Shown here piece after piece: positions 7,657 to 64,000 of a stretch of DNA of 64,000 nt. The DNA is from an uncultured Coprobacillus sp. (GTDB taxonomy: Bacteria; Bacillota_I; Bacilli_A; ML615J-28; CAG-698): contig CAYMGD010000005.1 of the NCBI GenBank assembly GCA_964389905.1, positions 6,842 to 70,841 on the forward strand, written 5' to 3'. The translations under genes were made by a program, and so were the position numbers. Numbering within the stretch: position 1 is the stretch's first letter; each line of letters begins with the position of its first letter. The notes below the pieces were generated by a model that was not told where the DNA came from, made no database searches, and was given only the letters and a program-made list of their open reading frames with translations.

Positions 7657-7746
7657 TAAAGATGTTAATATTTTAATCAGTCAATAAGAGTATACAAGAA
7701 ATTATTATAAAAATAAAGTAGCATATTTATATCACTTTAAAAATTA

Positions 7747-42153: not shown

Positions 42154-42795
42154 TTATTGAATTTTACTTACTGTATTTTCTGTTTTAGTAATCATTCTTT
42201 TAATATTAGGGATATGCTTAATTAATATTAAGGTATAAATCAAAACAGCTGAAATACCTACATAAAAATCAACATCCATTTTTAGAAGAGAATCATATGA
42301 AATAATAGCATAAACAATTGTAATAATAGTTAGCAGTAAGCCACTAATTAATGAACCTAAAGCTGATATCTTTGTTATTTTTACGATTATCACGAAAGCA
42401 AGAATAGATATTAGGGCCATTTGAGGGAAATAGGCAAATAAACATCCAGCGCCAGTAGCAACGGCTTTTCCACCTTTGAACTTCAAAAAGACAGGAAAAC
42501 AATGTCCAATACAAGCAAGAAGTCCATATAACGAAGGACTAAGGACCATATATTTGCTAGGGATAATATTATATCTAAATAGAACAACAAATAATGCTCC
42601 TTTAATCATATCGAAAATAAATGTTAAAATTGCATATTTTTTTCCTAAAACTCGGCCTGCATTAGCCGCTCCTATGTTATGACTTCCTTTTTCACGAAGA
42701 TCTGTTTTCTTTATTTTTGATATTATTAAACCAAAAGGAATTGAGCCAAATAGGTATGCAAGAAGGCAAAAGAGGACTTTTAAAAAAATTGTCAT
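42154..42795 (-). CDS. plsY: glycerol-3-phosphate acyltransferase PlsY
   Basis: GSHNIGAANAGR motif in a polytopic 213-aa protein. Confidence 0.9.
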   Translation of the reverse strand: MTIFLKVLFCLLAYLFGSIPFGLIISKIKKTDLREKGSHNIGAANAGRVLGKKYAILTFIFDMIKGALFVVLFRYNIIPSKYMVLSPSLYGLLACIGHCFPVFLKFKGGKAVATGAGCLFAYFPQMALISILAFVIIVKITKISALGSLISGLLLTIITIVYAIISYDSLLKMDVDFYVGISAVLIYTLILIKHIPNIKRMITKTENTVSKIQ

Positions 42796-43077
42796 AATTA
42801 ATTATTCTCCATAAAAAAATTAATCTTCTGAAAACTCGATTTTAGAAGTTAAATTGATACTTTATTATACAATATTTATCTTAATAATTCAATTAATTAT
42901 TTTGTCTTTTCTTCATATTTAGCTATTTTGTCATTTAAAAGTCATAAAAAATGCTTTAGAAAAAGTGTAAATTTCCTTTAGTTAATAAAAATTTAATTTT
43001 AATTTTTTATAAATATATAATTTGTTAATTGTATTCAATGATTTTTTTTGAACATATTTATTTTTAATAAATAGTTC

Positions 43078-47548: not shown

Positions 47549-48553
47549 ATGAATTGTTTATTAAATATTGACCATTATGTTATTCCTAACGATATTGTTG
47601 TGAAATTAGCAACAATATATAGATACATTGGAAACAATGATTTCTACCTAAATTCCTTAGGTAATGATATAAATAAAGTTATTGACCTAACAGTGGAAAA
47701 AGACGCTTACTTTTTATCGAAGATTTTAGACCTTGATATATCAGAAGCCCGTGCTAAACTTATTATTACAAAAAACTCTTCACCACGAAACAAAGAAGAA
47801 ACAACCCTAGCCAATATTAAGGAGTTACTATCAGGTATCCAACAAAAATATCATACCTTAAAACTTAAAAGTAATGATTTATATAATATGATAAATTATG
47901 TTTATTCCCATTATAGTAGCATTAAGTTTGGGATGTATGAAGGAAAAAGATCTGTGCTCCAATCACAAAGCATGGAAAGTAAAAGAAAAATTCTTGATGA
48001 AATGAGTGATCTTGTTGATAAATATATAACAAATAACTTATATGAAAAGATTATTTTATATATTCATTATTTTATAGATTTATCCAATCTTTCACCATTT
48101 GAATCAAAAAATGCAACAATTGCTTATCTCACACTTTACCAATTAATTTTATCTGCTGACTTAAATGCTTTCAAATATGTAAGTTTCTTTGAAATGCTTT
48201 ACAACAATTATTACAATTTTTCTAATGAACTTTGTAAAGCAAGTGTTAACTGGAAAGAGGGCTACGCCCAAACAACAGAATTTGTAAGATACTTTTTAGC
48301 CCTTATTGAAAAAGCATATAATAGTACAGATCAAATAATTAAAAATTATCAATATGATAAAACAAATAAAAAATATGAAAACATTGAAAGTTCAATTCTC
48401 TCAATGAAAACCATCTTTACAAAAGATGAAATAAGACAAATGTATCCTTATGTTAGTGAATCAACCATAAATAGAGCATTAGTCAGTCTTCGTGATATGG
48501 GATTAATTGAACCACTAGGAAAGGGTAGATCTGCAAAATGGACGAGGAAATAA
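47549..48553 (+). CDS. Fic-fold-like protein with degenerate active-site motif and C-terminal winged-helix domain
   Basis: SPFESKNATIAY sits where Fic proteins carry HPFx[DE]GNGRxxR. The C-terminus STINRALVSLRDMGLIEPLGKGRSAKW looks like a wHTH. Starts 9 nt after parC. Confidence 0.45.
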   Translation: MNCLLNIDHYVIPNDIVVKLATIYRYIGNNDFYLNSLGNDINKVIDLTVEKDAYFLSKILDLDISEARAKLIITKNSSPRNKEETTLANIKELLSGIQQKYHTLKLKSNDLYNMINYVYSHYSSIKFGMYEGKRSVLQSQSMESKRKILDEMSDLVDKYITNNLYEKIILYIHYFIDLSNLSPFESKNATIAYLTLYQLILSADLNAFKYVSFFEMLYNNYYNFSNELCKASVNWKEGYAQTTEFVRYFLALIEKAYNSTDQIIKNYQYDKTNKKYENIESSILSMKTIFTKDEIRQMYPYVSESTINRALVSLRDMGLIEPLGKGRSAKWTRK

Positions 48554-48577
48554 AGACATTTCCTATTTAAGTGTCAT

Positions 48578-48606
48578 AGAGTCTTTCTTGATAAAGACTC
48601 TTTTTT
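48578..48606 (+). terminator. rho-independent terminator after the Fic-like gene
   Basis: AGAGTCTTT-loop-AAAGACTCT followed by T6. Confidence 0.8.
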
Positions 48607-48646
48607 GATGTATAATATTAATAATAAATAATATAAGGTGGAAGAT

Positions 48647-49453
48647 ATGAAAAAAGTTAGATTATTTGTCTCTATCATATCATTTTTTCTCATTAGTTTT
48701 ATAATGACAATATCAATATGCTATGATTTAGACTCAACAAATTCTTTAGTTTTATCATTAATGATTATATTAATAGCTTACTTAAACTTATGCTTAAGAA
48801 GACAAGAAATAAACGAAATAAAAAGAATAATATTATCCTTTACTGAATCATGTGATTCTGATAAATGTCTTCAAGAATTAAATAAATTTATGAAATCATG
48901 CTTTTTTACAAAAAAACAAAAAAAATCATTTAATTTATATTTAGCAACAGTTTATATCGATAAAGGTGATTTAGAAACTGCAAAGGATTTACTATTAGAT
49001 ATTGATACAGTTAATTATGCCTTCAACAAATTAACAAAATTTGTATATCTAAAAAACTGGTGTGATTATTTCTTTTACAAACGACAAGATGAAAAAATGA
49101 AATATACGCTTTTAAAAATGAAAGATATAATCGATTTACTTCCAAACAATCGTACTAAATTTCAATTTATTCAAGTATATCAAAACGTTTCCGCAAAGTA
49201 TGCAATTTTGATATCAGAAAATCTTAACGAAGTTTATACCTACATAAAAGCACAAAGCGTATATGAAAACTCAAATTTCCAAAAACTGAATACATCATAT
49301 ATTACTGCTTTAATCGACCTCAGAAAAGGTGATACTGAGGCTGGCATAGAAAAATTAAAAACATTAGCTAAGGCTAATAAAAACCTATTTATTTGTGATG
49401 ATTCAAAAAGATTAATAAAAAAATATGAAGAAGAAGTCTTAAAATTAAATTAA
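48647..49453 (+). CDS. membrane protein with two N-terminal TM helices and a TPR-like helical domain, hypothetical
   Basis: RBS AAGGTGG in front of ATG 48647. No recognisable catalytic motif. Confidence 0.5.
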   Translation: MKKVRLFVSIISFFLISFIMTISICYDLDSTNSLVLSLMIILIAYLNLCLRRQEINEIKRIILSFTESCDSDKCLQELNKFMKSCFFTKKQKKSFNLYLATVYIDKGDLETAKDLLLDIDTVNYAFNKLTKFVYLKNWCDYFFYKRQDEKMKYTLLKMKDIIDLLPNNRTKFQFIQVYQNVSAKYAILISENLNEVYTYIKAQSVYENSNFQKLNTSYITALIDLRKGDTEAGIEKLKTLAKANKNLFICDDSKRLIKKYEEEVLKLN

Positions 49454-49466
49454 GGCTCTTTTTTTC
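49435..49466 (+). terminator. rho-independent terminator, last '+' transcription unit before the terminus gap
   Basis: AGTCTTA-loop-TAAGGCT (one G-U pair) followed by T7. Confidence 0.55.
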
Positions 49467-49589
49467 ATTTTATATCGATTCAAATTAATTAAACAGTTAA
49501 ATACTAAGAAAGAAATAAAATCGATTCTAAGTTAAATTTCAGTCATTAATATTATAAAAGATTTAAAAGAAAATATAGCATCTAAAATC

Positions 49590-50245
49590 AACTTATGAGA
49601 AGATTAATTATTATCTTGTTAAGAGTTATCAATAATATTATTTTAAAATTATTATTAAAGAGATTATATTATGATTCCATTAAAGAATTTATTTTAAGTA
49701 TTTATAAGTCTAGTATTAAAGTTTTTTAATTCATGAATTATTTTTATATAACTAATTTACAATCAATTTATGAGAAGATTAATTTCACCAGGTTAATAAC
49801 TATAAATAATCTTTTTCTAAATCACTTTTAGAGAAGATTATTTTTTATTATTATCCAATCATTAATAAAATATTAATAATTCTTATTACAAATCTATAAA
49901 TAATCGTATCAATAAAGAATTACTCAAAATATCAAATAAACAAAATATTTAGCTGCACTATATAGCATTATTTAAAATGAATTAAATAATCATTTTGTGA
50001 GAAGATTAATTATTATCTTGTTAAGAGTTTAATATTCTTTTAAAATTATTATTAAAGAGATTTTATAATGATTCCATTAAAGAATTTATTTTTAGTTTTA
50101 TAAGTATTAGTATTAAAGTTTTTTAATTCATGAATTATTTTTATATAACTGATTTTATAGATCAATTTATGAGATGATTAATTATGTGTTGGTTAATAAC
50201 TATAAATAATCTTTTTCTAAATCACTTTTAGAGAAGAAAAATTTT
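49590..50245 (+). repeat. left block: two tandem ~402-bp higher-order repeat units (A, B), each built from three sub-modules that begin with (T)GAGAAGATTA
   Basis: Exact TGAGAAGATTAATT at 49596, 49771 and 49998. Variants at 49831, 50170 and 50231. Unit B carries small indels relative to A. Confidence 0.9.
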
Positions 50246-50388
50246 TCTTATTAGCACAACAGATAATAAGTAACATATTAGTAGAACTGGTAAAATTTTT
50301 CTGATGATATAAGAATAGTTATTAACATCTAATAACTGAAAAGAAGTATTTATTAACTTTTCATAGCAGTATTTTAAATAGTGTTTTA

Positions 50389-50416
50389 ACTTCCTATAAT
50401 ATATATTATGTTAAAT
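50389..50416 (+). other. dif: dif site (XerC/XerD chromosome dimer resolution site)
   Basis: ACTTCCTATAATATATATTATGTTAAAT matches 25/28 positions of B. subtilis dif as I recall it (ACTTCCTAGAATATATATTATGTAAACT). The right arm TTATGTTAAAT is identical to the E. coli XerD arm. Confidence 0.85.
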
Positions 50417-50922
50417 AAAATATATAAACGGTGGGCGTTTTTATAATAAAATCAAGTGTATAAGTTTATAAATATAATTTTCAGTGGAAAATTATTAAAT
50501 TATTTACTTGTGGATAATTTATTGTTTTTTATATAAATTTCTTTTTAAATCGATTTTTAAAAAGATTAAAGATTTTTTATTAATATTTATAAATTGAAAT
50601 TATGCGAAATTTTATTTTTATGATGTTTTTTTTGTTTAAATTAAAATAAAAAAAATAATTATCTTCTTAGACAATTATTTTTAGAAATATAATTTTAAAA
50701 AGTTTTTAAAAGTTATCAACAATTATTAATTGTTAATAAATGATTAGTTATTAATATTATTTATTTAAATAAAATGTTTTAATTCTTTCAAAAAAGCTTT
50801 TAATTCTTCTTTTGTTGTGTTTTTTGTTTACTAATTAATAAATTACTATTAGCTAAATTAAATCGATTAAAACTCAAATTTGAGACTCATTTATTTAATA
50901 CTTTTACACTTATTGAAATTTC

Positions 50923-51405
50923 TATTTGTGAGAAGTTTATTATTTATCTTGTTAAGAGTTATCAATAATATTATTTTAAAATTATTATTAAAGAGATCAT
51001 ATTATGATTCCATTAAAGAATTTATTTTTAGTGTTTATAAGTCTAGTTTTAAAGTTTTTTCAATTCATGAATTATTTTTATATAACTAATTTACAATCAA
51101 TTTATGAGAAGATTAATTCTGTTTGGTTAATAACTATAAATGATCTTTTTTTAAATCACTTTTAGAAAAGATTATTTTTTATTATTATCCAATCATTAAT
51201 AAAATGTTAATAATTCTTATTACAAATCTATAAGTAATCGTATCAATAAAGAATTACTCAAAATATCAAATAAACAAAATTCTTATCTGAACTATAAGAA
51301 TTATTTAAAATGGATGAATTAAATATCATTTTATGAGAAGATTAATTATTATCTTGTTAAGAGTTATCAATAACATTCTTTTAAAAATATTTATTAGAAA
51401 GATTT
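50923..51405 (+). repeat. right block: repeat unit C plus the first ~70 nt of unit D, a direct repeat of 49590-50062
   Basis: Exact 14-mer at 51105 and 51334, and a variant TGAGAAGTTTATT at 50929. The offset from the left block is 1333-1336 bp. Confidence 0.9.
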
Positions 51406-51475
51406 AATTATTGAGTATTAAGAAAATTACTAATAATAGTTCTAATAAAGTCAATTTCAATTTGTTTTAATTTAT

Positions 51476-52060
51476 TAATTCTTTTTATAAGATGATTAAT
51501 TTTATTGGATTAAGAATCAATAAATAAACTTCATAAAAAATGTTTTAGAAAAATAATTTTATATCTATTCTCTTATATAAATTTTAAATACAGAAACTGA
51601 AATGAACCTAATTTATAGATGATTATTTTTTTAACATTTATTTTTTTAAGTTTGTAATTAGTTAATTTTATCAATTGATATTCTTCATCAGATTATGTAA
51701 TAAATGATTTACCTGATATAAAATTAATAAAGTTTTACAAGATGATTTATAATTTATTATTACAATTATTAATAAAATAAGATCTTTAAACAAAAATTTT
51801 AACCTCTTTTTTCATTTTTAATCTATTATTAATATTTTGTTTATAAATTAGTCATATAAAGTTTAAATCAATTGTAAAGTAAATTTAAGGATAATACTTA
51901 ATAAAGAAAATAATGAACTATAATCAATTTTATTATGATTAATTAAATTTATAAGATTTTTATAATAAATTAAGTTAACAATTGAAAAAAAAGAAATTTT
52001 ATAATTTTATTTTAAAATATAGTCACAGAAATAATTAAAAAGCCTCTCTAATGAGAAGCT
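51476..52060 (+). repeat. trail of degenerate head-motif copies (ATAAGATGATTAATT, ATAGATGATTATT, ACAAGATGATTTAT, ATAAGATTTTTAT, ATGAGAAGCTTAT)
   Basis: Read by eye at about 51486, 51613, 51737, 51950 and 52050, all on the '+' strand. Confidence 0.5.
52036..52060 (-). terminator. candidate terminator of the minus-strand hydrolase-deoB-xerD unit
   Basis: On the minus strand: AGCTTCTC-ATTA-GAGAGGCT followed by TTTTAATT. Confidence 0.45.
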
Positions 52061-52234
52061 TATGTAATTAATCATATTCATTTTATTTTGTTGAATACAA
52101 ATATTTTATGATAAAAATTGTAAAAATTTGTAATTTTTTTATTTATTATTCATCATTTTTACTGTTTTTTATCTAAAAATTAACGTTTTTTTATTATTTT
52201 TTTATTTAATTTAATAAATAAAATTATTATAAAG

Positions 52235-53146
52235 TTATTTTATATTGTTTATTAGAAGCCAATTTAATATATAATTATGTATTTCTTGTTTGTTTTTTTC
52301 TAATAAAATCTCATGTCTACAATCGTCAAATAGTTTTAAAGTAATATTTTGACGATGCATTTTCTTGCAAAGTTTCAATGTTCCTTTTCCCATTCCACCT
52401 ACAGGATCGCTTTTACCAGAAACAATTAGTATAGGTAAATCTTTAGGAGTTTTCTTGTAGTTTTTATTTAGTTTTTTAGTGCCTTTGAAGAAGTATTTAA
52501 AGTATGCTAGAGTGAATATTCCTCCGCAAAAGTCATCTGATATGTATTTGTCAACTTCTTCTTCATCACGATTTAACCAATCGTAAGGGGTTCTGTTTGG
52601 TTTGAAGTTTTTGTTGTAGGATCCAAATGTCATTTTATCAATTAGTTTACTACGATGTTTTCGACCTTTAAAGGCTATTAATATTGATGAAATGGCGCTT
52701 GCTAATGTAAGTAATAAATTAGAATTATATCCGCTCCCACAAAGTATTAATCCATCAATTTTGTTACCGTGAAGTTGAGAATATCTGTTTGAAACAAATG
52801 AACCCATACTATGAGCAAATATAATTATTTTTTTGTTTTCTTCATGTAATTTTACAAAATCAATCACGTAATCTAGATCTTTGACTAAATAATCAAAATT
52901 ATCTTCATCACCCATATAGCCATAGTTTTCTTTTCCATCAGTTGGAAAATGTCCACGATGACTATATGCGTATACTTTATAGCCTGAATTAATCAAATTA
53001 TTAGCAAATTCTTCATATCTTTCAATGTGTTCAGCCATACCATGAGCAATCACTACAACACTTTCATAATTTGTATTTTTTGATGCATATGTTAGTAATT
53101 TTTTACTATCAAAAGATGTTATAAACATTTTTGAAAAGTTTTCCAT
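52235..53146 (-). CDS. alpha/beta hydrolase (lysophospholipase/monoacylglycerol-lipase-like)
   Basis: HGMAEHIERY and nucleophile elbow AHSMGS. Length 303 aa. Confidence 0.75.
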   Translation of the reverse strand: MENFSKMFITSFDSKKLLTYASKNTNYESVVVIAHGMAEHIERYEEFANNLINSGYKVYAYSHRGHFPTDGKENYGYMGDEDNFDYLVKDLDYVIDFVKLHEENKKIIIFAHSMGSFVSNRYSQLHGNKIDGLILCGSGYNSNLLLTLASAISSILIAFKGRKHRSKLIDKMTFGSYNKNFKPNRTPYDWLNRDEEEVDKYISDDFCGGIFTLAYFKYFFKGTKKLNKNYKKTPKDLPILIVSGKSDPVGGMGKGTLKLCKKMHRQNITLKLFDDCRHEILLEKNKQEIHNYILNWLLINNIK

Positions 53147-53170
53147 GTTGTTTCTCCTTTGATTTTTTCG

Positions 53171-54373
53171 TTATTTTGTTATTTCTTTTAAAAAACTTAT
53201 TCCTATTCCAGTATTATTTAAATCAAAATTATCGCAAATCGTGGCTCCAATATCAGCAAAAGTTTCTCTTGTGCCTAAATTTATGCCCTTTAAGTTTTTG
53301 TTATATACTAGTAACGGCACATATTCTCTAGTGTGATCTGTTCCTGTATGAGTTGGATCGTTTCCATGGTCAGCACAAATAATTAATAAGTCATCATCAT
53401 TTATGTATTTAAGTAAATTATTTAAATCATTGTCGAACTCTTCCAAACATTCTGCGTATCCTAAACTGTTACGACGATGACCATATAAAGCATCAAAGTC
53501 AACCAAATTTACAAAACAAAGACCTTTGAAGTCACGCTTTTCTGCGATTTCAATTGTTTTTATCATTCCATCATGATTTGAAGTAATCTTTTGAGTTTCT
53601 GTTACACCTTCACCATCAAATATATCATTAATTTTTCCAATTGCTAGAACATCTAAATTATTACTTTTTAGTATATCTAAAGTTGTTTTACCAAATGGTT
53701 TAACAGCGTAATCATGTCTTCTTGGCGTTCTAGTGAAGTTTTCTGGTGTTGTTCCAACAAATGGTCTGGCAATTATTCTCCCTACCATCCAATCAGGATT
53801 TTCTAAAGTTATTTTTCGCGCTATTTCACAAACACGATATAACTCTGGTACTGAAATTACATCTTCGTTTGCGGCAAGTTGTAAAACAGAATCAGCGGAA
53901 GTATAAATTATGATTTTTTTAGTTTTTATATGTTCTGGTCCTAATTCTTTAATTATTTCTGTGCCACTTGCAGCATAATTTCCAATAAATTTATGTCCCG
54001 ATTCGTTTTCTAGCTTGGAAATTAATTCTTCAGGAAAACCATTTTCGGTAAATGAAGGAAATTTTTTGGTAACCCTTAAGCCCATTATCTCAAAATGTCC
54101 TGTTAATGTGTCTTTACCAACACTAATTTCATGGCATTTACCATATGAAGCAAGGGGATTTTCAATTGCTTCAGTATTGTTAATATCTGTAATATTTCCT
54201 ATACCTAATTTCTTTAAAGTTGGAATAGAAAAATTAGATTTACTGTAGCTCAAATGTTTTAAAGTGTTTACTCCTTTATCACCATATAAAGGACTATCTG
54301 GCATTTCTCCGCAGCCAACAGAATCTATTACAATACAAAATATTCGTTTAAAATTTATTTTATTAGAATTCAT
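53171..54373 (-). CDS. deoB: phosphopentomutase
   Basis: IVIDSVGCGEMPD, ADHGNDP and TDHTREYVPLL. xerD-deoB gene order as for B. subtilis ripX-drm. Confidence 0.9.
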   Translation of the reverse strand: MNSNKINFKRIFCIVIDSVGCGEMPDSPLYGDKGVNTLKHLSYSKSNFSIPTLKKLGIGNITDINNTEAIENPLASYGKCHEISVGKDTLTGHFEIMGLRVTKKFPSFTENGFPEELISKLENESGHKFIGNYAASGTEIIKELGPEHIKTKKIIIYTSADSVLQLAANEDVISVPELYRVCEIARKITLENPDWMVGRIIARPFVGTTPENFTRTPRRHDYAVKPFGKTTLDILKSNNLDVLAIGKINDIFDGEGVTETQKITSNHDGMIKTIEIAEKRDFKGLCFVNLVDFDALYGHRRNSLGYAECLEEFDNDLNNLLKYINDDDLLIICADHGNDPTHTGTDHTREYVPLLVYNKNLKGINLGTRETFADIGATICDNFDLNNTGIGISFLKEITK

Positions 54374-54387
54374 TTTTATTTTCTCCT

Positions 54388-55290
54388 TTAATTTTTCTTA
54401 TTTGCATGAGGATGAGATTGTTCAAAAACCTCACGTATTTTGGCACTATTAATATGAGTATATATTTCGGTTGTGGAAATATCGGCATGGCCTAAAAGTT
54501 CCTGAATCAAACGTAAATCTAAGCCTCTTTCTAGCAAGTGAGTAGCAAAAGAATGTCTTAATTTATGTGGTGAAATTGGTTTTTGAATTCCAGCAGCTTT
54601 TGCTTTTTCCTTTATAACAATGAAAAACATTTGTCTTGTCATTTGTTCACCATTATGATTCAAAAACAAAAAATCATTAGGGCGAGGACTAGCAAGTTTA
54701 GGCCTTCCAAGTTCTAAATATTTTTTTATTAGTTCAATAGCTTTTGCACCAACTGGAACAATTCGTTCTTTGCTGCCTTTACCAACAACATCAATTATTC
54801 CCATTTGTAAATGAACGGAAGACAATTTTAAATTTATTAGTTCACTGACACGTAATCCACATGAATAAGTAAGTTCAACCATTGTTTTATTACGAAGTTC
54901 AATCGGTGTATCTTCGGTGAATGTTGCTAATAAATTATCAACTTCTTCTAGCGATAAAACCACAGGAAGTTTCTTTTCTTTTTTAGGATTAGTAATCAGT
55001 TTTGCAACATTTTGTTCAGTATAATGAAATTTAACTAAAAATGTATGAAATGATTTAATCGATGAAAGTTTTCGTGACAAACTGCTAGAAGAAAGGTTTT
55101 TTCGTTTAAGTGTTGCAAGATACGCTCTAATATCATTTACAGTTATATCTTGAGGCATTTTACAACTACGATATTTGCTTAAATAATTTAAATAATCTGA
55201 TATATCTTTTAAGTAATTATCACAAGTGTTTTTACTTAAACCTAGTTCAGTTGTTATATACATTTCATATTCAATCAAAAAATTATTCAT
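54388..55290 (-). CDS. xerD: tyrosine site-specific recombinase XerD
   Basis: Catalytic residues lie in CGLRVSEL, LRHSFATHLLE and LGHADISTTEIYTH. Lies ~4 kb from the dif site. Confidence 0.85.
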   Translation of the reverse strand: MNNFLIEYEMYITTELGLSKNTCDNYLKDISDYLNYLSKYRSCKMPQDITVNDIRAYLATLKRKNLSSSSLSRKLSSIKSFHTFLVKFHYTEQNVAKLITNPKKEKKLPVVLSLEEVDNLLATFTEDTPIELRNKTMVELTYSCGLRVSELINLKLSSVHLQMGIIDVVGKGSKERIVPVGAKAIELIKKYLELGRPKLASPRPNDFLFLNHNGEQMTRQMFFIVIKEKAKAAGIQKPISPHKLRHSFATHLLERGLDLRLIQELLGHADISTTEIYTHINSAKIREVFEQSHPHANKKN

Positions 55291-55319
55291 TGTTTTTCTC
55301 CTTTCTTAAATAAGTCTAA

Positions 55320-56444
55320 TTAGTCTAATAAATCTACAATGATACTATTAGAAATATATAATCTTTGAGGATTAATTCTTAAAATATTATTTTCTAATAT
55401 TAAATTGCCATTATTTATGTTTTTTTCTAAGTTTTTGAATTCAAAAATAGATTTATTGAATTTTTTTTCAAACTCCTTTATATCAATACCTTTAATAGTA
55501 CGTAGTTTCAACATTATCTCATTAAATATATTATCTTCATATGATACTTTTTCTTCTTCAAGATAAATAAGTTTATTTTCATCTATTCCTTGATAATATT
55601 TGTTTAAATTATTGATATTAGTATAACGAACATTATCAATGTAATAACTTGCCCCTGCACCACATGCTATATAATTTTCATTCATCCAATAAGTGTAATT
55701 ATGTTTGCTTTCTTTTCCCGAAAGAGCATAATTACTAACTTCATAGTGAATAAAATTATTATTTTCTAAATATGATGTTATATAATCATATATTAAAGCT
55801 TCATCATCATCTGATAAAGGTTTATAATTAAATTCTTGAATCATATGATTTAAGATTGTTTTTTCCTCAACAATCAAAGTATAACAAGAAATATGAGGAA
55901 TATGTAGTTCTAAAAGTATTTCTAAATCTTTTTTTATTAACTCTTTAGTATCAGTTGACAAACCATAAATAATATCACAATTAATATTATCAATATTGTT
56001 ATCTTGAAGTATTTTAATAGCTTTAATAATATCTTTATCAGTATGATTTCTTCTAAGAGTTTTAAGCTTTTCATTATTGAAAGATTGTACACCTAAACTA
56101 ATACGATTGACATTGTATTTTTTTAATAAACTTATTAAATCAAAATTAATATCTTTAGGATTACATTCAAAAGTAAATTCTTTTATACTATTTAAATCTA
56201 TTAATTCATTAAGTTTTTCAAATAATTTCTGTAAATCATTTAAACTAACTCTTGATGGTGTACCACCGCCTACATAAATTGTTTCTAAAGCACTAAAATA
56301 TTGTTTTTTCATCTCTAGTTCTTCAATCAAATAATTCATGTATTTATTTATTTCTTTTTCTTTGGCTATCATTTTATAAAAATCACAATAAATACAAATA
56401 TGGTCGCAAAAAGGAATATGGATATACAATGCTTTGACACTCAT
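55320..56444 (-). CDS. hemW: radical SAM heme chaperone HemW (HemN-like)
   Basis: CDHICIYCDF (CxxxCxxC). Lies downstream of lepA, as in B. subtilis. Confidence 0.85.
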   Translation of the reverse strand: MSVKALYIHIPFCDHICIYCDFYKMIAKEKEINKYMNYLIEELEMKKQYFSALETIYVGGGTPSRVSLNDLQKLFEKLNELIDLNSIKEFTFECNPKDINFDLISLLKKYNVNRISLGVQSFNNEKLKTLRRNHTDKDIIKAIKILQDNNIDNINCDIIYGLSTDTKELIKKDLEILLELHIPHISCYTLIVEEKTILNHMIQEFNYKPLSDDDEALIYDYITSYLENNNFIHYEVSNYALSGKESKHNYTYWMNENYIACGAGASYYIDNVRYTNINNLNKYYQGIDENKLIYLEEEKVSYEDNIFNEIMLKLRTIKGIDIKEFEKKFNKSIFEFKNLEKNINNGNLILENNILRINPQRLYISNSIIVDLLD

Positions 56445-56571
56445 TAGTTAATCACCTTATAATAAAATTATAATATTTATTTATTTTATAGTCAAATAAA
56501 AGATTTAATAAATTTAACTTTTTTTGTTTAAAAATGCTTTAATTTGAAATTTTTTATAAAAAAGTATATTT

Positions 56572-56600
56572 AAAATCGATTTCTGAGAAGATTAATTTTT
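56572..56600 (+). repeat. isolated copy of the terminus-array head motif (AAAATCGATTTCTGAGAAGATTAATT)
   Basis: Exact TGAGAAGATTAATT at 56584-56597, on the same strand as the array. Confidence 0.85.
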
Positions 56601-56630
56601 ATACAATAAACTTTTATTAATTAAATTCAT

Positions 56631-56664
56631 AAAAAAACTTACTCGAAATCGAATAAGTTTTTTA
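56631..56664 (-). terminator. terminator hairpin, copy 1 of a duplicated 30-nt element
   Basis: AAAAAACTTACTCGAAATCGAATAAGTTTT. On the minus strand the hairpin is followed by a T-run. Confidence 0.6.
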
Positions 56665-56703
56665 TAAAATCACTTAATTATGCTTTTATTCTTGTTACAA
56701 TAT

Positions 56704-56947
56704 TTATTCTTCAAAATTAATATGAATTATTATCGTTACATTAGGATTTATTATATATGTTCCAGTTAGTGTAGCAGTTCCTACTCCACTTGTTGTTAGA
56801 AAGCCATAATCATACATTGTAACTACTATAATTCATCCACATTCATTTCTAAATTTGTTTCACTTGCAAACACTAATGTATTAGCATTACAAAAAATAAT
56901 ACTAATGATGAAACTAAAGTAATGCGTTTTATTATTTTATTAATCAT
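56704..56947 (-). pseudogene. possible decayed small secreted-protein gene
   Basis: Signal-peptide-like MINKIIKRITLVSSLVLFFVMLIH* is followed in other frames by VFASETNLEMNVDEL* and MYDYGFLTTSGVGTATLTGTYIINPNVTIIIHINFEE*. Confidence 0.3.
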
Positions 56948-56956
56948 TCAAACCTA

Positions 56957-57550
56957 CTATTTTTCCCATTGTTCATGAATATCCTTTATTAAATTAATAT
57001 CTTCAACATTTAAAATTTCTTTTTTCATTATAGTCTCTACATCATACGAATTATCAAAAGAATAAAACGAATGTTCGTGCCATAATAATATTTCAAAATC
57101 TGAAGGATAATAGAAATTAATACCTTCTACATTAATATTTTTTTCAACATCGCCTGGTAATAAAATAAACATTACAACAGCTTTATTATAAATACCATAG
57201 CATCTAGCATTGGGATAAATTACATATCCATACTTTCCTTTATGTTCATAACTATTAAAATCTTCTATAATTGTTTTTTCAATTTCTTTCGTAAGTATAA
57301 CCTTATTAATTTGAGTCTCAACTTCTTCAATTATTTTGTTTTTTTCTTCTTTGACATTTTTTATTTTATCTACTGAATCAATTAAATTGGTTACATATTT
57401 CATATCATTTTTAATTAACTCCGATTTAGATAAATTATTAACATATTGTGTTAATTCATTTTTAATATTATCATTTTCTTGATTTCCATCACACCCAATT
57501 AGACACATTATTAAAATTAAACACATAAAAACAACAAATATCTTTTTCAT
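56957..57550 (-). CDS. lipoprotein, hypothetical
   Basis: Lipobox CLIGC after a signal peptide. Inserted between lepA and hemW. Confidence 0.6.
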   Translation of the reverse strand: MKKIFVVFMCLILIMCLIGCDGNQENDNIKNELTQYVNNLSKSELIKNDMKYVTNLIDSVDKIKNVKEEKNKIIEEVETQINKVILTKEIEKTIIEDFNSYEHKGKYGYVIYPNARCYGIYNKAVVMFILLPGDVEKNINVEGINFYYPSDFEILLWHEHSFYSFDNSYDVETIMKKEILNVEDINLIKDIHEQWEK

Positions 57551-57852
57551 TTTCCTTCACTCCTTTCCAAATTAATTCTTTCTTAATACTCAAAGATAAT
57601 CACCATATTAATTAAATAAGTCTTTTTCATGTATAACTCCTCCTATTATTATATTATATGTTCTTAATACAAAAAACTCACATTTTGAAAAGAGTTCAAT
57701 AAATGTCTTTAAAGTTAAAATATTCATATTATAGTCTAATTATTGTAGCCACCTTAGAATATAAATTTTCCATACAATTAAATTATACCAAATGCTATTA
57801 TTTATGTCAACGTTTTTATTTTTTTATCAATTTTTAATAATTCTTTATAAAG

Positions 57853-57884
57853 CAAAAAACTTACTCGAAATCGAATAAGTTTTC
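57853..57884 (-). terminator. lepA terminator, copy 2 of the duplicated 30-nt element
   Basis: Same 30-mer as 56632-56661. On the minus strand the hairpin is followed by TTTTTT. Confidence 0.7.
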
Positions 57885-57920
57885 TTAAGTTACAGAAAAT
57901 GTGCTTTTCTAGAAAGTAAA

Positions 57921-59735
57921 TTAATCATCTATATCTAATACAGCTAAGAATGCTGATTGAGGGATATCAACATTACCAACAGCTTTCATTCTTTTTTTAC
58001 CTGCTCTTTGCTTTTCAAGAAGCTTCTTCTTACGAGATATATCTCCGCCATAGCATTTCGCAAGAACATCTTTTCTTAAAGCTTTAACATTTGTTCTTGC
58101 AATTATCTTTCCACCGATTGCTGCTTGAATTGCAACTTCAAACATTTGTCTTGGAATTAGTTCTTTTAGTTTACTTGTGATTTGGCAACCACGTCTGTAT
58201 GCGTTGTCACGATGAACAATACAGCTAAGAGCATCAACTCTTTCACCAGCTACTAAAATATCCATTTTAACAAGATTGGAAGCTTTATATTCAGATAATT
58301 GATAATCAAATGAAGCATAACCACGAGTTTGAGATTTTAGTTTATCGAAGAAATCAAAAATAACTTCGGATAGTGGTAATTCATACTCTAAGGTTACTCG
58401 ATTAGTATCGATATATTCCATTGTTTTGTATCGTCCTCTTTTGCCTTGGCATAATTCCATAATTGGGCCAATGTATTCTGAAGGTGTCATAATTGTTGCA
58501 TTAACATATGGTTCTTCGATGAATTTTATTTCACTTGGATCAGGCATAAAAGCTGGGTTATCGACCATTTTTTCTGTTCCATTTGTAAGTATTACTTTAT
58601 AACTTACACTTGGACAAGTAGCAATTAAGTCAAGTTTAAATTCTCTTTCAATTCTTTCTTGAATTACATCCATATGAAGTAATCCTAAAAATCCTACTCT
58701 AAAACCAAAGCCTAAAGCTTGGGAATTTTCAGGTTCAAAGACTAAAGAGGCGTCGTTTAGTTTTAGTTTTTCCAAAGCTTCTTTTAATTCGCTATATTTG
58801 GCATTGTCAATTGGATACATCCCGCAAAATACCATTGGATTAAGTTTGCGATATCCAGGCAAAGGATTACTTGCTGGTTTATCAACATAAGTTATTGTAT
58901 CACCAACTCTAATAAAGCTGATATCTTTTATTGACGCGGAAAGAAAACCTACATCACCAGGTTTTAAAGAATCTTTGATTATTTCTTTTGGAGTATATGT
59001 ACCAACCTCAATAACTTCAAAAGTTGTATTTGTGCTCATTGTTTTAAGCATATCACCTTTTTTTATTGTACCATTAATAACTCTTATTAGAGGTATTACC
59101 CCGCGATATGAGTCATAATACGAATCAAATATTAAAGCTTGCAAAGGTTCATTTTCATCGCCATTTGGAGAAGGAATAACTTTTATTATTCGTTCTAAGA
59201 TTTGGTCAACGCCAACTCCTGTTTTAGCGCTACATAAAATAGCATCCTTAGCATCAATTCCAATGACATTCTCGATTTCTTCTTTAACCATTTCAGGATC
59301 TGCGCTTGGCAAATCTATTTTATTAATAACTGGTATTATTTCTAAATTATTGTCTAAAGCTAAATAAACATTAGCCAGAGTTTGAGCTTCTATTCCTTGA
59401 GTAGCATCTATAACTAGAATTGCTCCTTCACAGGCAGCAAGAGAACGTGAAACCTCATATGTGAAGTCAACATGCCCTGGAGTATCAATAAGATGAAAAA
59501 CATAATCTTCACCAGCATGCGACTTATAATTAAGTTCCACAGCATTAAGTTTAATCGTAATCCCTCTTTCACGTTCTAAATCCATTGAATCAAGGATTTG
59601 ACTCTTCATTTCTCGCTCTTCAACAGCTCCCGTTAGCTGCAAAATTCTATCAGCAAGAGTACTTTTCCCATGGTCAATATGAGCAATAATCGAAAAGTTA
59701 CGAATATTTTTTTGTATATTATTATTTTTATTCAT
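57921..59735 (-). CDS. lepA: translation elongation factor 4 (LepA)
   Basis: [22 protein letters not shown] and NKIDL. Start moved to MNKNNN..., behind GTGGAG. Confidence 0.95.
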
Positions 59736-59901
59736 ATAAACTCCACTAATTAACATTTTATCTAAAATATTATATCATGTTTTAAAAAAAATAAAAAGAA
59801 ATTTTTGACTTTGAAAAAGAAAATTGTTATTTTTTATTAACATTTTATAATTAATATGATAAAATATTTTATTGAAATTAATCGTCTTATATGAGGTCTA
59901 T

Positions 59902-62037
59902 ATGAAAAAGAAAAAACTAATATTTAATATTATTACAACTATTACAATATTATCATTTGTATTAATATTTGCCTATATCATATATGATTTATTTAATCCT
60001 CTTAAGGAACTTCTAATAAATGGTAATGATAAAGAATTTACTGAAACAATTAAATCATATGGTATATGGAAATATGTATTTATGATTTTATTTAGTACTT
60101 TCCAAATATTTATGACAATTATGCCTGGTGAACCAATACAAGTCTTATCAGGAATAATTTGTGGACCATTCCTAGGTGTTTTAGTGTGCATGATAGGTGT
60201 TGCAATTGGTAACCTTTGTATGTTTCTTTTAGTGCGAACAATTCATTTTGAAATTGACCAAGATCGTTATAAGAAAAAAGGTTATTCAACAAACATAGAT
60301 GAAAGTAAAACAGAAGATAAAAAAGCATTTACATGGTTTATTTTAGGTTTATACTTTGCCCCAGTTATTCCTGATGGTGTTATAGCATATACAGCCGCAA
60401 AAAACAAAAAAATGAGTTTTCTAAGATACATCCTTGTAACAACATTAGGAACTCTTCCTCAAATTGTCTTATGTATCACTGCTGGAACACTTTTCATGAA
60501 ATATTCTACCGAAATATTTAAATTAACTGAAATGCTTCCTTTATTAATAGGTGGTTTAGTAATCTTTATTATTATTTTCTTAATAATAAAATATAAGAAA
60601 AATATCATAAATCATATTTTAAATAGAAGCATTAGAGCTACAGCAATATGGGTATTTCCTTTTATTGTTATAACTTTAGTTGATTTATCATTGTTAGTAT
60701 CTCATAAGTATTTGGCTTGTGCAATTATTTTAGGAATAATGATAATATACATAATTATGTATATTATATTTGACAAAAGATTATCTAAAATCTTTACGAA
60801 AAAGAAAATGAATGATTTTAAAAATGATATTTATTTAAAGCCTAGCAAACTAGTAACTTATCCATTAATTTATATTTTCAAGCTCTTCTTTCATCCAAAA
60901 TTCAATTTAAAAGTTGACAAAAATGGAATTGATAAAATTAATAAACCAGCTGTAGTATTATTTAATCATCAATCAGCCATAGATTTTATTAATATTGTTC
61001 CTCAATTTTATCCTGAAGGAGTTAACGTTGTAACTGCTTATTATTACTTTTGTAATTATCACTTGGGACGAATACTAAATAAATGCGGATGTTTTCCAAA
61101 ATTCCTTTATCAGCCTGATATAAGTGCAATAAAGAATATGCATAAAGTTGTAAAAAATAATGGCATTCTACTTCTTTCTCCTGAGGGAAGATTATCTGCA
61201 TATGGTGAAATGGAATCATATATTCCTAGTACAATAAAGTTTTTGAAAAAGGAAAAATGTGATGTTTATCTAATGAAAAGTTATGGTGCATACTTTACAA
61301 AACCAAAGTGGGCCAAAACTTACCGAAAAGGACGCATTGATTTAAAATATGAACACATCTTTACTAAAGAATCATTAGAAATTCTTTCATACGAAGAAAT
61401 ATATAAGATACTATATGATAAATTATATTATAATGAATATGATTGGATGGAGAAAAATAAAGTTCCTTTCAAAGGGAAAAAATTTGCCGAGGGATTGGAA
61501 CAAATACTATACATATGTCCTGTTTGTGGGAAAGAATTTACATATGTTTCTAAAAACAGTAAAATGGAATGCACACATTGCCATACAGTAGTAAAACTTA
61601 ACAAGTTTTATGGCTTAGAAAGTGAAAATCCTTCTATTCCTCATACAATAAGAGATTGGTATCTTTACCAAAAGAATATTGAAAGAAAAAGAATTAAAGA
61701 TTCTAATTACAAATATACTAGTAATGTTACCTTAAAACTACCTGATCCAAAAGGAAATGGATTTACCATAGTAGGTAAAGGTGTATGTACTCTAACTAAT
61801 GATGGAGTTAGATACGTTGGAACAATAAATAACGAGGAAAAAGATATTCTCTTCAAATTAGAGAATATGCCAGCTATTCCATTTGGTGTGAAGGAAGATT
61901 TCGAAATATATCACAACCAAACACTTTATTATTTTGTTCCTGATAATATCAGAGAATGCGTAAAATGGTCAGTTGTTGAAGAGCAAATGTATGAAGAATA
62001 CATAGAAGTCAATAACAAGAAACCTTGGGATTTTTAA
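59902..62037 (+). CDS. fusion of a VTT/TVP38-type (DedA-like) membrane domain with a PlsC-like acyltransferase and zinc ribbon
   Basis: The N-terminal half is polytopic (…MPGEPIQVLSGIICGPFLG…). The C-terminal half has NHQSAIDF (H(X)4D), SPEGRLS and CPVCG...CTHCH. Confidence 0.65.
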   Translation: MKKKKLIFNIITTITILSFVLIFAYIIYDLFNPLKELLINGNDKEFTETIKSYGIWKYVFMILFSTFQIFMTIMPGEPIQVLSGIICGPFLGVLVCMIGVAIGNLCMFLLVRTIHFEIDQDRYKKKGYSTNIDESKTEDKKAFTWFILGLYFAPVIPDGVIAYTAAKNKKMSFLRYILVTTLGTLPQIVLCITAGTLFMKYSTEIFKLTEMLPLLIGGLVIFIIIFLIIKYKKNIINHILNRSIRATAIWVFPFIVITLVDLSLLVSHKYLACAIILGIMIIYIIMYIIFDKRLSKIFTKKKMNDFKNDIYLKPSKLVTYPLIYIFKLFFHPKFNLKVDKNGIDKINKPAVVLFNHQSAIDFINIVPQFYPEGVNVVTAYYYFCNYHLGRILNKCGCFPKFLYQPDISAIKNMHKVVKNNGILLLSPEGRLSAYGEMESYIPSTIKFLKKEKCDVYLMKSYGAYFTKPKWAKTYRKGRIDLKYEHIFTKESLEILSYEEIYKILYDKLYYNEYDWMEKNKVPFKGKKFAEGLEQILYICPVCGKEFTYVSKNSKMECTHCHTVVKLNKFYGLESENPSIPHTIRDWYLYQKNIERKRIKDSNYKYTSNVTLKLPDPKGNGFTIVGKGVCTLTNDGVRYVGTINNEEKDILFKLENMPAIPFGVKEDFEIYHNQTLYYFVPDNIRECVKWSVVEEQMYEEYIEVNNKKPWDF

Positions 62038-62051
62038 TTAATAAATGTAAT

Positions 62052-62116
62052 AAAAAGCTATTATTTGACTATACAAAACTATTTAGTTTATGTATAATTT
62101 GAATAATAGCTTTTTT
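62052..62116. terminator. long-range hairpin between convergent genes
   Basis: AAAAAGCTATTATT...AATAATAGCTTTTT. Confidence 0.5.
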
Positions 62117-62143
62117 ATTAATTATTTTTTTAGTTAATGAATA

Positions 62144-64000
62144 CTAATCAACTAAGTTAATTTGGCTTTTTGAATCAACTATAACATTCATAATTTGATA
62201 TAAAATAGCCCATGATCCTTCTTCAAATGTAACACTTTTCATCAAATAGTTATCTTGATTGACTAAAATTTTGCCAGAAGAATTATTGGATTTAAGATGC
62301 CAACTGTAAGTTAAATTATCCACATTATAAGGTAAACCATTAATATTATACTTATTAATATCAATAGTATTGTCAATATAACCAAAAGTTTCTATGTTTT
62401 TAGAAGAAATTCTAGTACCTTCGCTTTCATTTGATTCATAGAAATATAAAGCTGCTTCTCCTATTTTGGAAGCCGTAAATTCAGTACTTAATTTATTTCT
62501 AAAAAGCTGATAAATCATATATTTATTATCATCACTCTTTATTATGTAATATCCCATAGAGTAAGTGCATTCACCTGAAGTTTCAGCAACAAAATCGCTT
62601 AAGTCTTTAATAGTTTCATCTTCTGCAATATATTTTACATATATATAGTCAGTATTACCAGAACTAACAGCCCACTGATAAGTCTTATATTCTTTTTTCA
62701 AATTTAAAGTTGAATTTAAAACATTAAGTTTTGCATTATAATTATATAACAAGTTGACAGGAGCAAAATCAGCATTAACAGTAAGATCTTTAAATGTAAC
62801 TGTTGTATTTTTTTGTGTTGCAATAATTGCAGAATCTAAAATTTCTAATCTTCCATTTAAGTTAAGAGTTCCATTACGAATTTTTAAATGGCCATATACG
62901 TCTATCCCTTTTTCAGATATTAAATCACCACAATTAATAGTTAAAATATGATTATTCAAATCTAAATCAATTGCATAAATTGTTGTAACATTATTTTTTG
63001 TTGAAGAATCCTCAATACCACCTATTGTTCCATCTCCATATACCCAGCTTGGCGCTGTTTTGCTACCAAATGCAGCTAAAAAATCTTCTGGAGTACATGT
63101 AATATTATCAGTTAAACGAACTATAATTGCATCTCTACCTCGGTCTTGATCTTTCCAATCAATATCAGATAATGATGAAATGTTTACTATTGTTTCTTCT
63201 ATGTCATCTTTATAAACATGGCAACGCGTACATTGACCACGATCGTCAAAATCATGTAAATCAGGTGCTATAATTTGTGCGCCTTCAGTTATTTTTCCAC
63301 AACGTACACATATAGTTCCTGCTTCTTGTCCAGCAGTAATACATGTTGGTTCTATTTGCTCACCATGTGATATTTCTATGTGTCCTAAAGCATCTATTGT
63401 TTTGCTAACTAAATAGTTACATTCTTCAATAGTACATTTAATTTCTATTTTTCCTTCATTTTCACATGTTGGCATTACGTATTCAGTTTCAAATTTATGT
63501 ACATGTCCAGATTGTTCAGTAGTTCCATCATATTTACAGAATAAACATTTACCATTTTCATCTATATAATGCTCACCATATTTTGTTTCTTTATCACAAT
63601 CACAAGTATATTTATTACTACCTAAGTTTATAGTATCATTATCTTGATGGAATTTTGTTCCTTCTGATACTAGTTTTCCTGAGCTTATACTGCTTAAGTA
63701 AGCAACATACATTTCATGTAAATATACTTTACCATTAGCTTTAGTACTTCCTGAAAGTTCCACTTCATCACTATCTTTTGATGATAATGCAAAATATAAT
63801 GTATCAACTACACCATAACAATGTATTTCTGCTACAAAACTTGTTGTTAAAGCTAAATGTCCACGATTTAGTCTTACTTTAACATCCATGCTTGTATATA
63901 CAACTACTACTAGTTCTTGATCACTATATGTACCTTCATCAAAACCTACATACATATTTAATACGTTATCACTATCTTTAGCTGGTGACTTGCTTCCTGC
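62144..64000 (-). CDS. large secreted/surface protein with Cys/His-rich modules and a beta-helix-like region (N-terminus beyond the window)
   Basis: The frame stays open upstream of M63955 to the window edge. Modules have the form H.H.F......PTC...G.....C..C. The C-terminal half has N/T-rich beta-helix-like repeats. Confidence 0.6.
   Translation of the reverse strand, partial: AGSKSPAKDSDNVLNMYVGFDEGTYSDQELVVVVYTSMDVKVRLNRGHLALTTSFVAEIHCYGVVDTLYFALSSKDSDEVELSGSTKANGKVYLHEMYVAYLSSISSGKLVSEGTKFHQDNDTINLGSNKYTCDCDKETKYGEHYIDENGKCLFCKYDGTTEQSGHVHKFETEYVMPTCENEGKIEIKCTIEECNYLVSKTIDALGHIEISHGEQIEPTCITAGQEAGTICVRCGKITEGAQIIAPDLHDFDDRGQCTRCHVYKDDIEETIVNISSLSDIDWKDQDRGRDAIIVRLTDNITCTPEDFLAAFGSKTAPSWVYGDGTIGGIEDSSTKNNVTTIYAIDLDLNNHILTINCGDLISEKGIDVYGHLKIRNGTLNLNGRLEILDSAIIATQKNTTVTFKDLTVNADFAPVNLLYNYNAKLNVLNSTLNLKKEYKTYQWAVSSGNTDYIYVKYIAEDETIKDLSDFVAETSGECTYSMGYYIIKSDDNKYMIYQLFRNKLSTEFTASKIGEAALYFYESNESEGTRISSKNIETFGYIDNTIDINKYNINGLPYNVDNLTYSWHLKSNNSSGKILVNQDNYLMKSVTFEEGSWAILYQIMNVIVDSKSQINLVD

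Follow-up and report, generated by a model that had tools for sequence, protein, structure and literature searches.

What is a dense array of short, same-strand repeats doing around the site at which a gut bacterium resolves its chromosome dimers? The question is raised by a 64,000-nt stretch of contig CAYMGD010000005.1, from an uncultured Coprobacillus sp. (hereafter “the window”), in which a gap between convergent genes holds both dif, the XerC/D chromosome dimer resolution site, and a series of related modules. A reading made from the letters without database searches (the “sequence-only reading”) had noticed the array and offered three kinds of explanation: a terminus-specific protein-binding array, by analogy with matS/MatP or Ter/RTP; a family of small RNAs or promoters; and relics of elements integrated at dif. 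Here, we describe what the modules have in common, within the window and across species, and weigh what they may be for. Two findings carry the argument. First, the modules share a 26-nt core that, in at least six other lineages (one of them with 45% GC), likewise adjoins a dif that is identical or nearly so. Second, the motif clusters within about 10 kb of dif and is densest in the AT-rich convergent-gene gap. The explanation that we tentatively prefer is a set of binding sites for a protein that marks the dif region.

The array occupies a non-coding gap of 2.8 kb (49454–52234; 15% GC), delimited by the ORF list, composition, and Pfam and bounded by a gene for a 271-amino-acid protein (+) and an alpha/beta hydrolase gene (−). 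Within it lies dif (50389–50416, +; sequence search), with the sequence ACTTCCTATAATATATATTATGTTAAAT, i.e., ACTTCCTATAA-TATATA-TTATGTTAAAT, a canonical 28-mer that resembles the dif sites of Bacillus subtilis and Escherichia coli. The sequence-only reading had placed dif in this gap, and the placement agrees with the cumulative GC skew, which has its maximum at 50–52 kb and changes sign at dif, and with the convergence of the flanking genes. The most conspicuous part of the modules is a 14-mer, TGAGAAGATTAATT, present in six exact copies, all on the + strand, at exactly the positions that had been listed (49596, 49771, 49998, 51105, 51334, and 56584); none is expected, as judged from 100 dinucleotide-preserving shuffles. 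All five close variants that had been named are also present, with three of their coordinates corrected by one base (49830, 50170, 50230, 50929, and 51164). Both tail types and the AAATC(A/G)NTTT prefix are found on the modules as described, but the distance from the 14-mer to the TTAATAAC tail is 8 nt, not 10–11 nt. A profile hidden Markov model of the module (nhmmer) gives 12 matches in the gap, one solo match at 56570–56630 (+), and one at 42790–42845 (−), with no further match in the remaining ~45 kb of the window. The earlier claim that every copy is on the + strand therefore holds for the gap array but not for the minus-strand copy at 42790–42845, in the plsY leader.

Alignment of the copies defines a core of 26 nt with sharp boundaries, TAAATCRNTTTYTGAGAAGATTAWTT, for which the consensus is TAAATC(R)NTTT(Y)TGAGAAGATTA(W)TT. 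It is followed by a looser 3′ extension of ~36 nt with the form TTA..(T)TATCRATAAAAT. The significance of the core becomes apparent when other genomes are considered. One genome for each of 185,579 species was scanned with a degenerate pattern, which returned 36 loci, and further loci were reached outward from homologues of the 271-amino-acid protein and of DeoB; all are referred to here by L numbers. True copies in the genome collection come from two metagenome-assembled genomes (MAGs) only, both labelled Coprobacillus sp. The dif 28-mer is identical in the syntenic loci L031, L040, L068, and L070, is cut by the contig end in L047, and has a single mismatch in L074. L031, which is syntenic with the window, and L020 both carry module copies. 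Four modules lie on the parC side of dif in L047/L048, at 958 to 115 nt from it, and L040 and L068 each have five copies to the left (the parC side) and one or two to the right. In L070/L071, two copies are found on the left and one on the right, and all three contain the identical 25-mer TAAATCGATTTCTGAGAAGATTAA within flanks that are wholly different. In L054–L058, a module directly follows a gene’s terminator. The most divergent case is L074/L075 (45% GC, 70% DeoB identity), where AAAACCATTTTCTGAGAAGATTATCTTT (AAAACCATTTTCTGAGAAGATTAT) lies 304 nt from the one-mismatch dif, a second copy follows a terminator further left, and an inverted copy comes directly after the hydrolase stop codon.

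Across 16 copy pairs, mostly between species, identity is 0.86 in the 26-nt core, 0.57 in the next 36 nt, and 0.36–0.40 in the 60-nt flanks, the last being the chance level for AT-rich DNA. Moreover, several copies are positional orthologues. A copy follows mutS2 in both L006 and L020; copies lie near hemN in both the window and L068, the latter being a degenerate copy (7662–7715) at the same relative position as the solo module of the window; single modules are found at +525 (L068) and +568 (L070) from dif, where the window has module C1 at +532; and in four lineages the first copy follows the terminator of the 271-amino-acid protein gene. A long core with sharp boundaries, diverged flanks, and conserved positions point to a functional site rather than to a young selfish repeat or decaying relics. 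Comparison of the copies thus shows that purifying selection has held the core in a whole clade of gut Bacilli, which are uncultured. In L050, L052, and L059, relatives at a greater distance (33–37% identity in the 271-amino-acid protein), synteny is different and the locus has no dif or modules.

Some matches from the same searches were set aside. Eight in other Bacilli MAGs (L002, L012, L016, L021, L027, L028, L030, and L032) lie inside the rplE coding sequence and are coincidental; the 23-mer concerned, ATCGATTTCTGAGAAGATTAATT or a one-base variant, is kept by coding conservation of ribosomal protein L5 and is a trap for motif searches. The L038/L045 matches come from an unrelated organism. 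A separate observation concerns the right edge of the gap, after the hydrolase gene, where three lineages have a degenerate or inverted module by or in a terminator hairpin (window 52040–52061, −; L068 12154–12173; L074 12159–12196). The L074 edge has an inverted repeat, made up of a partial core in forward orientation and an inverted core. In the window, the match at 52052 is the 3′ arm of the hydrolase-gene terminator hairpin, and the trail of decayed copies that had been traced to ~52.05 kb does not extend with any significance beyond 51476–51534; degenerate copies do occur at the position equivalent to 52052 in L068 and L074.

Where, then, are the copies with respect to dif? In the window, they are found at −7.5 kb, within the gap, and at +6.2 kb, and all copies that can be placed in any genome lie within about 10 kb of dif. 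One genome, the binchicken_co370_253 MAG, was scanned whole. There, L031 and L020 are adjacent 8-kb blocks of a single 138-kb contig; strict matches are found only at +0.3 and +9.3 kb from dif, a variant copy is at −1.2 kb, and the strict pattern finds no copies beyond the dif contig. The motif was thus not scattered genome-wide in this MAG, as an ordinary dispersed repeat might be, and the suggestion of a terminus motif survives that check. Within arrays, the copies occupy a single strand, the same as that of dif written ACTTCC...AAAT. Orientation across dif is a different matter. The right-hand copies keep the left-hand orientation in the window, L068, L040, and L070; in L031/L020 and L074, the left copies are + and the right copies −, such that they converge on dif; and the window copy at −7.5 kb is inverted.

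The array in the window is best understood as a set of larger units. Modules of ~50 nt do recur, as the sequence-only reading had it, but the repeating entity is a ~400-bp unit with three related modules, and the units are laid out in the order A, B, dif, C, D, all on the + strand. Unit A (49588–49985; repeat families, blastn) comprises module A1 (49582–49644; core TGAGAAGATTAATT at 49596, tail GTTAAGAGTTATCAATAAT; nhmmer E 1.8e-11, a training seed), module A2 (49757–49818; core at 49771, tail GGTTAATAACTATAAATAAT; E 2.4e-10), and module A3 (49817–49875; variant core AGAGAAGATTATTT at 49830; E 2.2e-7). The remaining units were delimited by repeats, blastn, and nhmmer, and their modules by nhmmer. 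Unit B (49985–50253) is truncated, with modules B1 (49985–50040) and B2 (50157–50218) and a stub, B3 (50217–50237). To the right of dif, at a distance of 156 nt, is a decayed module remnant (50545–50569, +; repeat finding, with a weak nhmmer match, E 2.2). Unit C (50921–51326) has modules C1 (50921–50976, +532 from dif), C2 (51091–51152), and C3 (51150–51209). Unit D (51326 to ~51560) is decaying, with modules D1 (51320–51382; exact core at 51334) and D2 (51476–51534). The spacing of modules is irregular, ranging from 59 to 506 nt.

Two solo modules lie outside the gap. One (56570–56630, +; exact 14-mer, nhmmer) is upstream of hemN and divergent from it, and it adjoins a bidirectional terminator hairpin at 56630–56665. 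The other (42790–42845, −; core TCAGAAGATTAATT; nhmmer E 3.9e-4, outside the training set) is in the plsY leader, between a promoter-like site (TTGAAT-17-TATAAT) and the ribosome-binding site. The plsY position in L047 and L068 is without a module copy.

Repeat finding and blastn give identities of 92–93% between units A and C and 89% between B and A, and the block 49593–50145 is 87% identical to the block 50926–51489. Since the A+B block is so similar to C+D, the expansion of the array is recent. Growth of the array in this genome is, to judge from these identities, a product of tandem duplication and of the copying of a two-unit block across dif. Unit A would have been duplicated to give B, and the two-unit block would then have been copied over dif onto a pre-existing module at about +530, giving C and D.

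The reading that we prefer is that the copies are candidate non-polar binding sites for a protein that marks the dif region, in a role like that of MatP on matS, XerD on XDS, or TrmBL2; we judge this plausible, at somewhat below an even chance. A sequence-specific DNA-binding protein would recognize the 26-nt word, and an array of such proteins on both sides of dif could mark or insulate the dimer resolution region. The bound array could stall or unload complexes of the SMC (structural maintenance of chromosomes) type; alternatively, it might hold the region in place for FtsK and Xer at division. Binding would be non-polar, and the one-strand arrays would reflect growth by tandem duplication. 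A more specific proposal, which we put forward as possible rather than probable, is that this is a new terminus-organizing system of Firmicutes, in which a dedicated protein on a 26-nt word flanking dif, together with a few sites within 10 kb, forms a block that insulates or positions the dimer resolution site. Such a system would parallel MatP/matS, XerD/XDS, and TrmBL2 in function while being unrelated to them in sequence and layout. Our literature search found no description of such an array adjoining dif. What would be novel is a terminus-restricted motif of this sequence and layout; terminus-restricted motifs of the dif region are, as such, known. Of the options in the sequence-only reading, a terminus-specific protein-binding array is the best supported, and it is strengthened by the conservation of the core beside the same dif in other species. 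Its two suggested models fare less well: the analogy to Ter/RTP fails on orientation, and that to matS extends to role only.

Several observations weigh against a terminus-marking protein. Confinement to the terminus was seen with the strict pattern in one MAG of unknown completeness, and the loci were mostly fetched for their proximity to dif. The conserved neighbors, a Fido/Fic protein and the 271-amino-acid protein, are neither of them an obvious DNA binder for the motif. An intrinsic terminator is found within 30 nt of many of the solo or first copies, an arrangement for which the model gives no account. The solo copies in the plsY 5′ leader and ~65 nt upstream of the L006 start codon suit a transcriptional role. 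Lastly, the motif is asymmetric, with a 3′ extension at a roughly fixed spacing, and a promoter would look the same.

The last two points lead to the strongest competitor, namely, that the modules are promoters or operators, the core being a site for an activator, a repressor, or an alternative sigma factor upstream of a weak −10 element (a AATAAAAT box). Solo copies would then control nearby genes, while the arrays would fire nested non-coding transcripts toward dif that end at a hairpin just past it. Many copies have a TAnAAT-like, A/T-rich box ~30–42 nt after GAGAAG, and the first copy in L070 has a perfect TATAAT. In L006, the copy precedes by 65 nt a start codon that has a ribosome-binding site; first copies come after the upstream gene’s terminator, a place where one expects the next promoter; and a GC hairpin with a T-run lies 10 nt past dif in both the window and L070. 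However, sigma-70-like sites in the gap are no more numerous than in shuffles (30, with 38 ± 6 expected), although the AT-rich background weakens this test, and the hexamer most like a −10 element is not at a constant position, its index being 25–30 in some copies and 37–42 in others. The plsY copy sits within the leader, with a good promoter upstream and the ATG 22 nt away, and the hemN-side and hydrolase-side copies point into terminators or into the 3′ ends of convergent genes. The arrays lack terminators between modules, and a promoter model offers no account of why a regulon should be confined to within 10 kb of dif. We consider this explanation unlikely, but it is the part of the earlier “small RNAs or promoters” option that still has to be reckoned with.

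Another possibility is that the modules are selfish or relic DNA, i.e., the recognition end of a small element or leftovers of integrative mobile elements exploiting Xer (IMEXs), piled up in a tolerant gap and duplicated locally. The copy number per species varies strongly, from 1 to 12; the duplications in the window are recent (87–93% identity); L047 and L068 lack a counterpart of the plsY copy; and assemblies break at or near dif. Each array has one orientation, as in stacked IMEXs. Several copies abut terminators, for which some mobile elements have a known preference as targets. Against this stands the pattern of conservation: identity is restricted to the core and falls to chance level in the flanks, the opposite of what is seen for young copies of an element, and relics are not expected to keep a perfect core across lineages ranging from 24% to 45% GC, nor are they expected to show the positional orthology that some copies do. 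In addition, no second dif-like site (≤7 mismatches) is present in the window, XerD-arm-like words are at chance, and the modules have no inverted terminal repeats or conserved hairpin. The gap is without a transposase or recombinase gene. In blastn searches, the ~440-bp unit matched nothing in phages and gave three marginal Borreliella matches in plasmids, such that the concern that the units are fragments of a known phage or insertion sequence was not borne out by these searches. A motif scan of viral contigs produced two single matches only, one of them the contig of an isolated metagenome match. We find a mobile or relic origin doubtful, and the more specific idea of relics integrated at dif is contradicted by the single dif-like site, the core-only identity, and the positional orthologues.

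The asymmetry of the core also invites a polar interpretation, in which the modules are Ter-like fork barriers or guide sequences for FtsK/SpoIIIE. The motif has the right location, at the terminus, and in L031/L020 and L074 the copies converge on dif; furthermore, the GAGAAG of the core corresponds to the first six bases of the B. subtilis SpoIIIE recognition sequence (SRS), GAGAAGGG, and more generally resembles words of the SRS and KOPS (FtsK orienting polar sequence) type. However, no single polarity rule yields a trap, or guidance toward dif, in all species: the window, L068, L040, and L070 keep one direction across dif, with the right-hand copies pointing away from it, and the −7.5-kb copy of the window is inverted. 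A fork trap and an FtsK guide are both made less likely by this variation in orientation between species. The conserved site, at 26 nt, is also far longer than a translocase guide word. Outside the gap, GAGAAGAT occurs only once on each side of dif, and other words are skewed instead: across 1–49453 and 52235–64000, those most skewed toward dif are AAGAAGAA (28:0) and GAAGAAG (35:5), which are similar to an A-rich word that has been reported as the FtsK guide of Lactococcus. These two words are better candidates for translocase guides than the module core, and a polar terminus device made of the modules is, in our view, improbable.

The weakest proposal, that each unit encodes a small structured RNA or a small hydrophobic peptide (e.g., a type I toxin), draws on a 44-codon ORF in unit A, a 69-codon ORF in unit C that includes the same sequence, and single copies that fold well (49800–49880, z −4.15; L031 2620–2750, z −4.9), but it is largely refuted and highly improbable, since the ORF lacks a ribosome-binding site and is broken in units B and D, its ATG is CTG, TTG, TAG, or AAA in other species, Rfam 15 has no match at E ≤ 1 in window positions 48000–58000, RNAalifold predicts 0 pairs for 23 copies from seven lineages, and most single folds are no better than shuffles (z +0.2 to −1.2). 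The sequence-only reading had already, and correctly, argued that the modules are non-coding, whereas its small-RNA option finds no support in Rfam or RNAalifold.

The surroundings of dif have features that are worth recording in their own right. A small GC hairpin with a T-run lies on the + strand ~10 nt past dif (aacggtgggcgttttt at 50427–50443 in the window; aacgctcagcgtttt at ~13353–13367 in L070), and its appearance is that of a weak intrinsic terminator, one that would act on transcription coming across dif from the array. At 120 nt from the start of dif is a perfect DnaA box, TTATCCACA (50509–50517, −), with counterparts at +121 to +123 in L068, L040, and L070. Another word that resembles the box, TTATCAACA or TTATCCAAA, is present at 50713–50721 in the window, and at +318 to +324 from dif across the window, L068, L040, and L070. 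In L031, TTATCAACA is found twice, at +95 and at +111 from dif, and L074, with 45% GC, has no DnaA box-like word beside dif. It is unexpected to find a DnaA box whose position beside dif is conserved.

Genes on both sides of the gap point toward it. To the left of dif, parE, parC, a gene for a 334-amino-acid protein, and the gene for the 271-amino-acid protein are all on the + strand; to the right, genes for the alpha/beta hydrolase, deoB, an xerD-like recombinase (4 kb from the array), hemN, and lepA are all on the − strand. Some relatives have a single 700-amino-acid fusion protein (P0070) that combines the alpha/beta hydrolase with DeoB. The 271-amino-acid protein has no family match. The 334-amino-acid gene (47549–48553, +), directly after parE-parC, encodes a Fido/Fic-domain protein (PDB 8uqu_A, E 9e-16) and keeps its position after parC in all relatives examined; the C-terminal stretch of the L031 homologue was read by eye as a putative winged-helix motif. 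Toxins of the FicT type modify GyrB and ParE, and the linkage of the Fido/Fic gene to parE-parC may be meaningful.

Assemblies tend to break at dif. Three independent metagenome contigs end in or at the dif 28-mer (L047 11808–11835, the end of L048, L069 9164–9195, and L073 ~12830), and an N-gap interrupts the dif gap region in the isolate scaffold FZPS01000015.1 (GCA_900198705.1). The breaks are likely a consequence of dif being an invariant hub amid hypervariable, repeat-rich flanks that are common to co-occurring strains. An identical dif 28-mer is also found in L067 (8341–8368), in an unrelated, GC-richer genome, where a 47.5-kb contig predicted to be viral ends about 70 nt from it. This contig has no modules and may be a prophage abutting dif.

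Why should a locus of this kind matter? To our knowledge, the marking of the terminus is known in detail only for relatives of E. coli (MatP/matS, Tus/Ter) and for B. subtilis (RTP/Ter, XerD/XDS), and we know of no terminus mark in most other lineages. The modules provide a sequence-defined candidate: a 26-nt word that is under strong purifying selection and is found essentially only around dif, in a clade of gut Bacilli with reduced genomes. If a protein binds this word, it would be an independent solution to the problem of terminus marking and a bacterial counterpart to the protein-bound, AT-rich surroundings of archaeal dif. If the modules are instead promoters, operators, or relics, they would be more ordinary, yet they would remain of use for marking the dif region in these genomes and would explain why assemblies break there. 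The organisms are mostly uncultured. However, the motif can serve directly as bait for a pull-down, and a cultured relative appears to exist, since FZPS01000015.1 encodes a DeoB identical to that of L074, whose dif region has the motif.

How do the modules compare with known systems? Several comparisons can be dealt with briefly. The properties of miniature inverted-repeat transposable elements and repetitive extragenic palindromic sequences are missing: there are 0 consensus pairs, identity is at chance outside the core, and strict matches in the MAG are near dif only. An origin with iterons would share the AT-rich DNA and the DnaA box at +120, but the modules are irregularly spaced, there is no rep gene, and skew and gene orientation are those of a terminus. 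A comparison by eye with known consensus sequences of operators and promoters (CodY, sigma-H, WalR, LytTR, ComK, IHF, Fur/Zur, and DnaA), meant only as a source of leads, produced no fit to the core. IMEXs of the CTX/TLC type, which are integrated by XerCD, are alike in having same-orientation tandem units by dif in variable copy number; they differ in carrying genes and in being bounded by dif-like sites, whereas the units here are non-coding, are conserved in the core only, and have a single dif-like site in 64 kb. The Ter sites bound by RTP in B. subtilis and by Tus in E. coli are likewise few, asymmetric, ~20–30 bp long, and clustered at the terminus. However, Ter sites form two opposed fork-trapping groups, whereas the orientation of the modules varies between species and makes no consistent trap; the module sequence is also not known to be related to the Ter consensus.

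The XDS sites of B. subtilis are a closer parallel. Karaboja and colleagues reportedly showed in 2021 that XDS sites are bound by XerD and function in SMC unloading. According to a later article, XerD on dif-like XDS sites keeps SMC complexes out of the terminus (PMC11840125). Both sets of sites are terminus-specific and found in a Firmicute, and XDS act on Smc-ScpAB independently of recombination. The difference is that XDS are described as dif-like in that article, and the modules are not. A dif-like or XDS-like reading of the core was tried and rejected: its reverse complement fits the XerC arm at 7–8 of 11 positions (CTTC..A.AA), with nothing beyond and no XerD arm. The XerD-arm word TATTATGTTAAAT, allowing ≤2 mismatches, gave 31 matches, with 28 expected, and none of them is in a module core; nor does the window have a second 28-mer within 7 mismatches of dif.

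The likeness to matS is one of role. Sites of matS are copies of a 13-bp palindrome, GTGACRNYGTCAC, with ~23 of them spread over ~800 kb. The proposed likeness is that of a terminus-restricted motif forming a set of non-polar protein-binding sites around dif; the core described here, by contrast, is 26 nt long, asymmetric, unrelated in sequence, found in Bacilli, and dense within ~1 kb of dif, with outliers at ≤10 kb. The matS word is absent from the core in the alignment of copies. In the known system, MatP on matS keeps the SMC-type complex MukBEF out of the terminus region (PMC11894783).

Lastly, the layout of the locus is closely reminiscent of an archaeon. In Thermococcus kodakarensis, dif lies in an AT-rich gap of ~1.9 kb that separates convergent genes, with TrmBL2 bound on both sides of dif, and these TrmBL2-bound flanks stall Smc-ScpAB independently of the 28-bp dif (PMC11840125). 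The gap in the window, at 2.8 kb, is similarly large, AT-rich, and convergent, and the resemblance is in layout only. TrmBL2 is an archaeal nucleoid protein with many genome-wide sites and a preference of the A-tract shape type, whereas the gap described here carries a discrete, conserved word of 26 nt.

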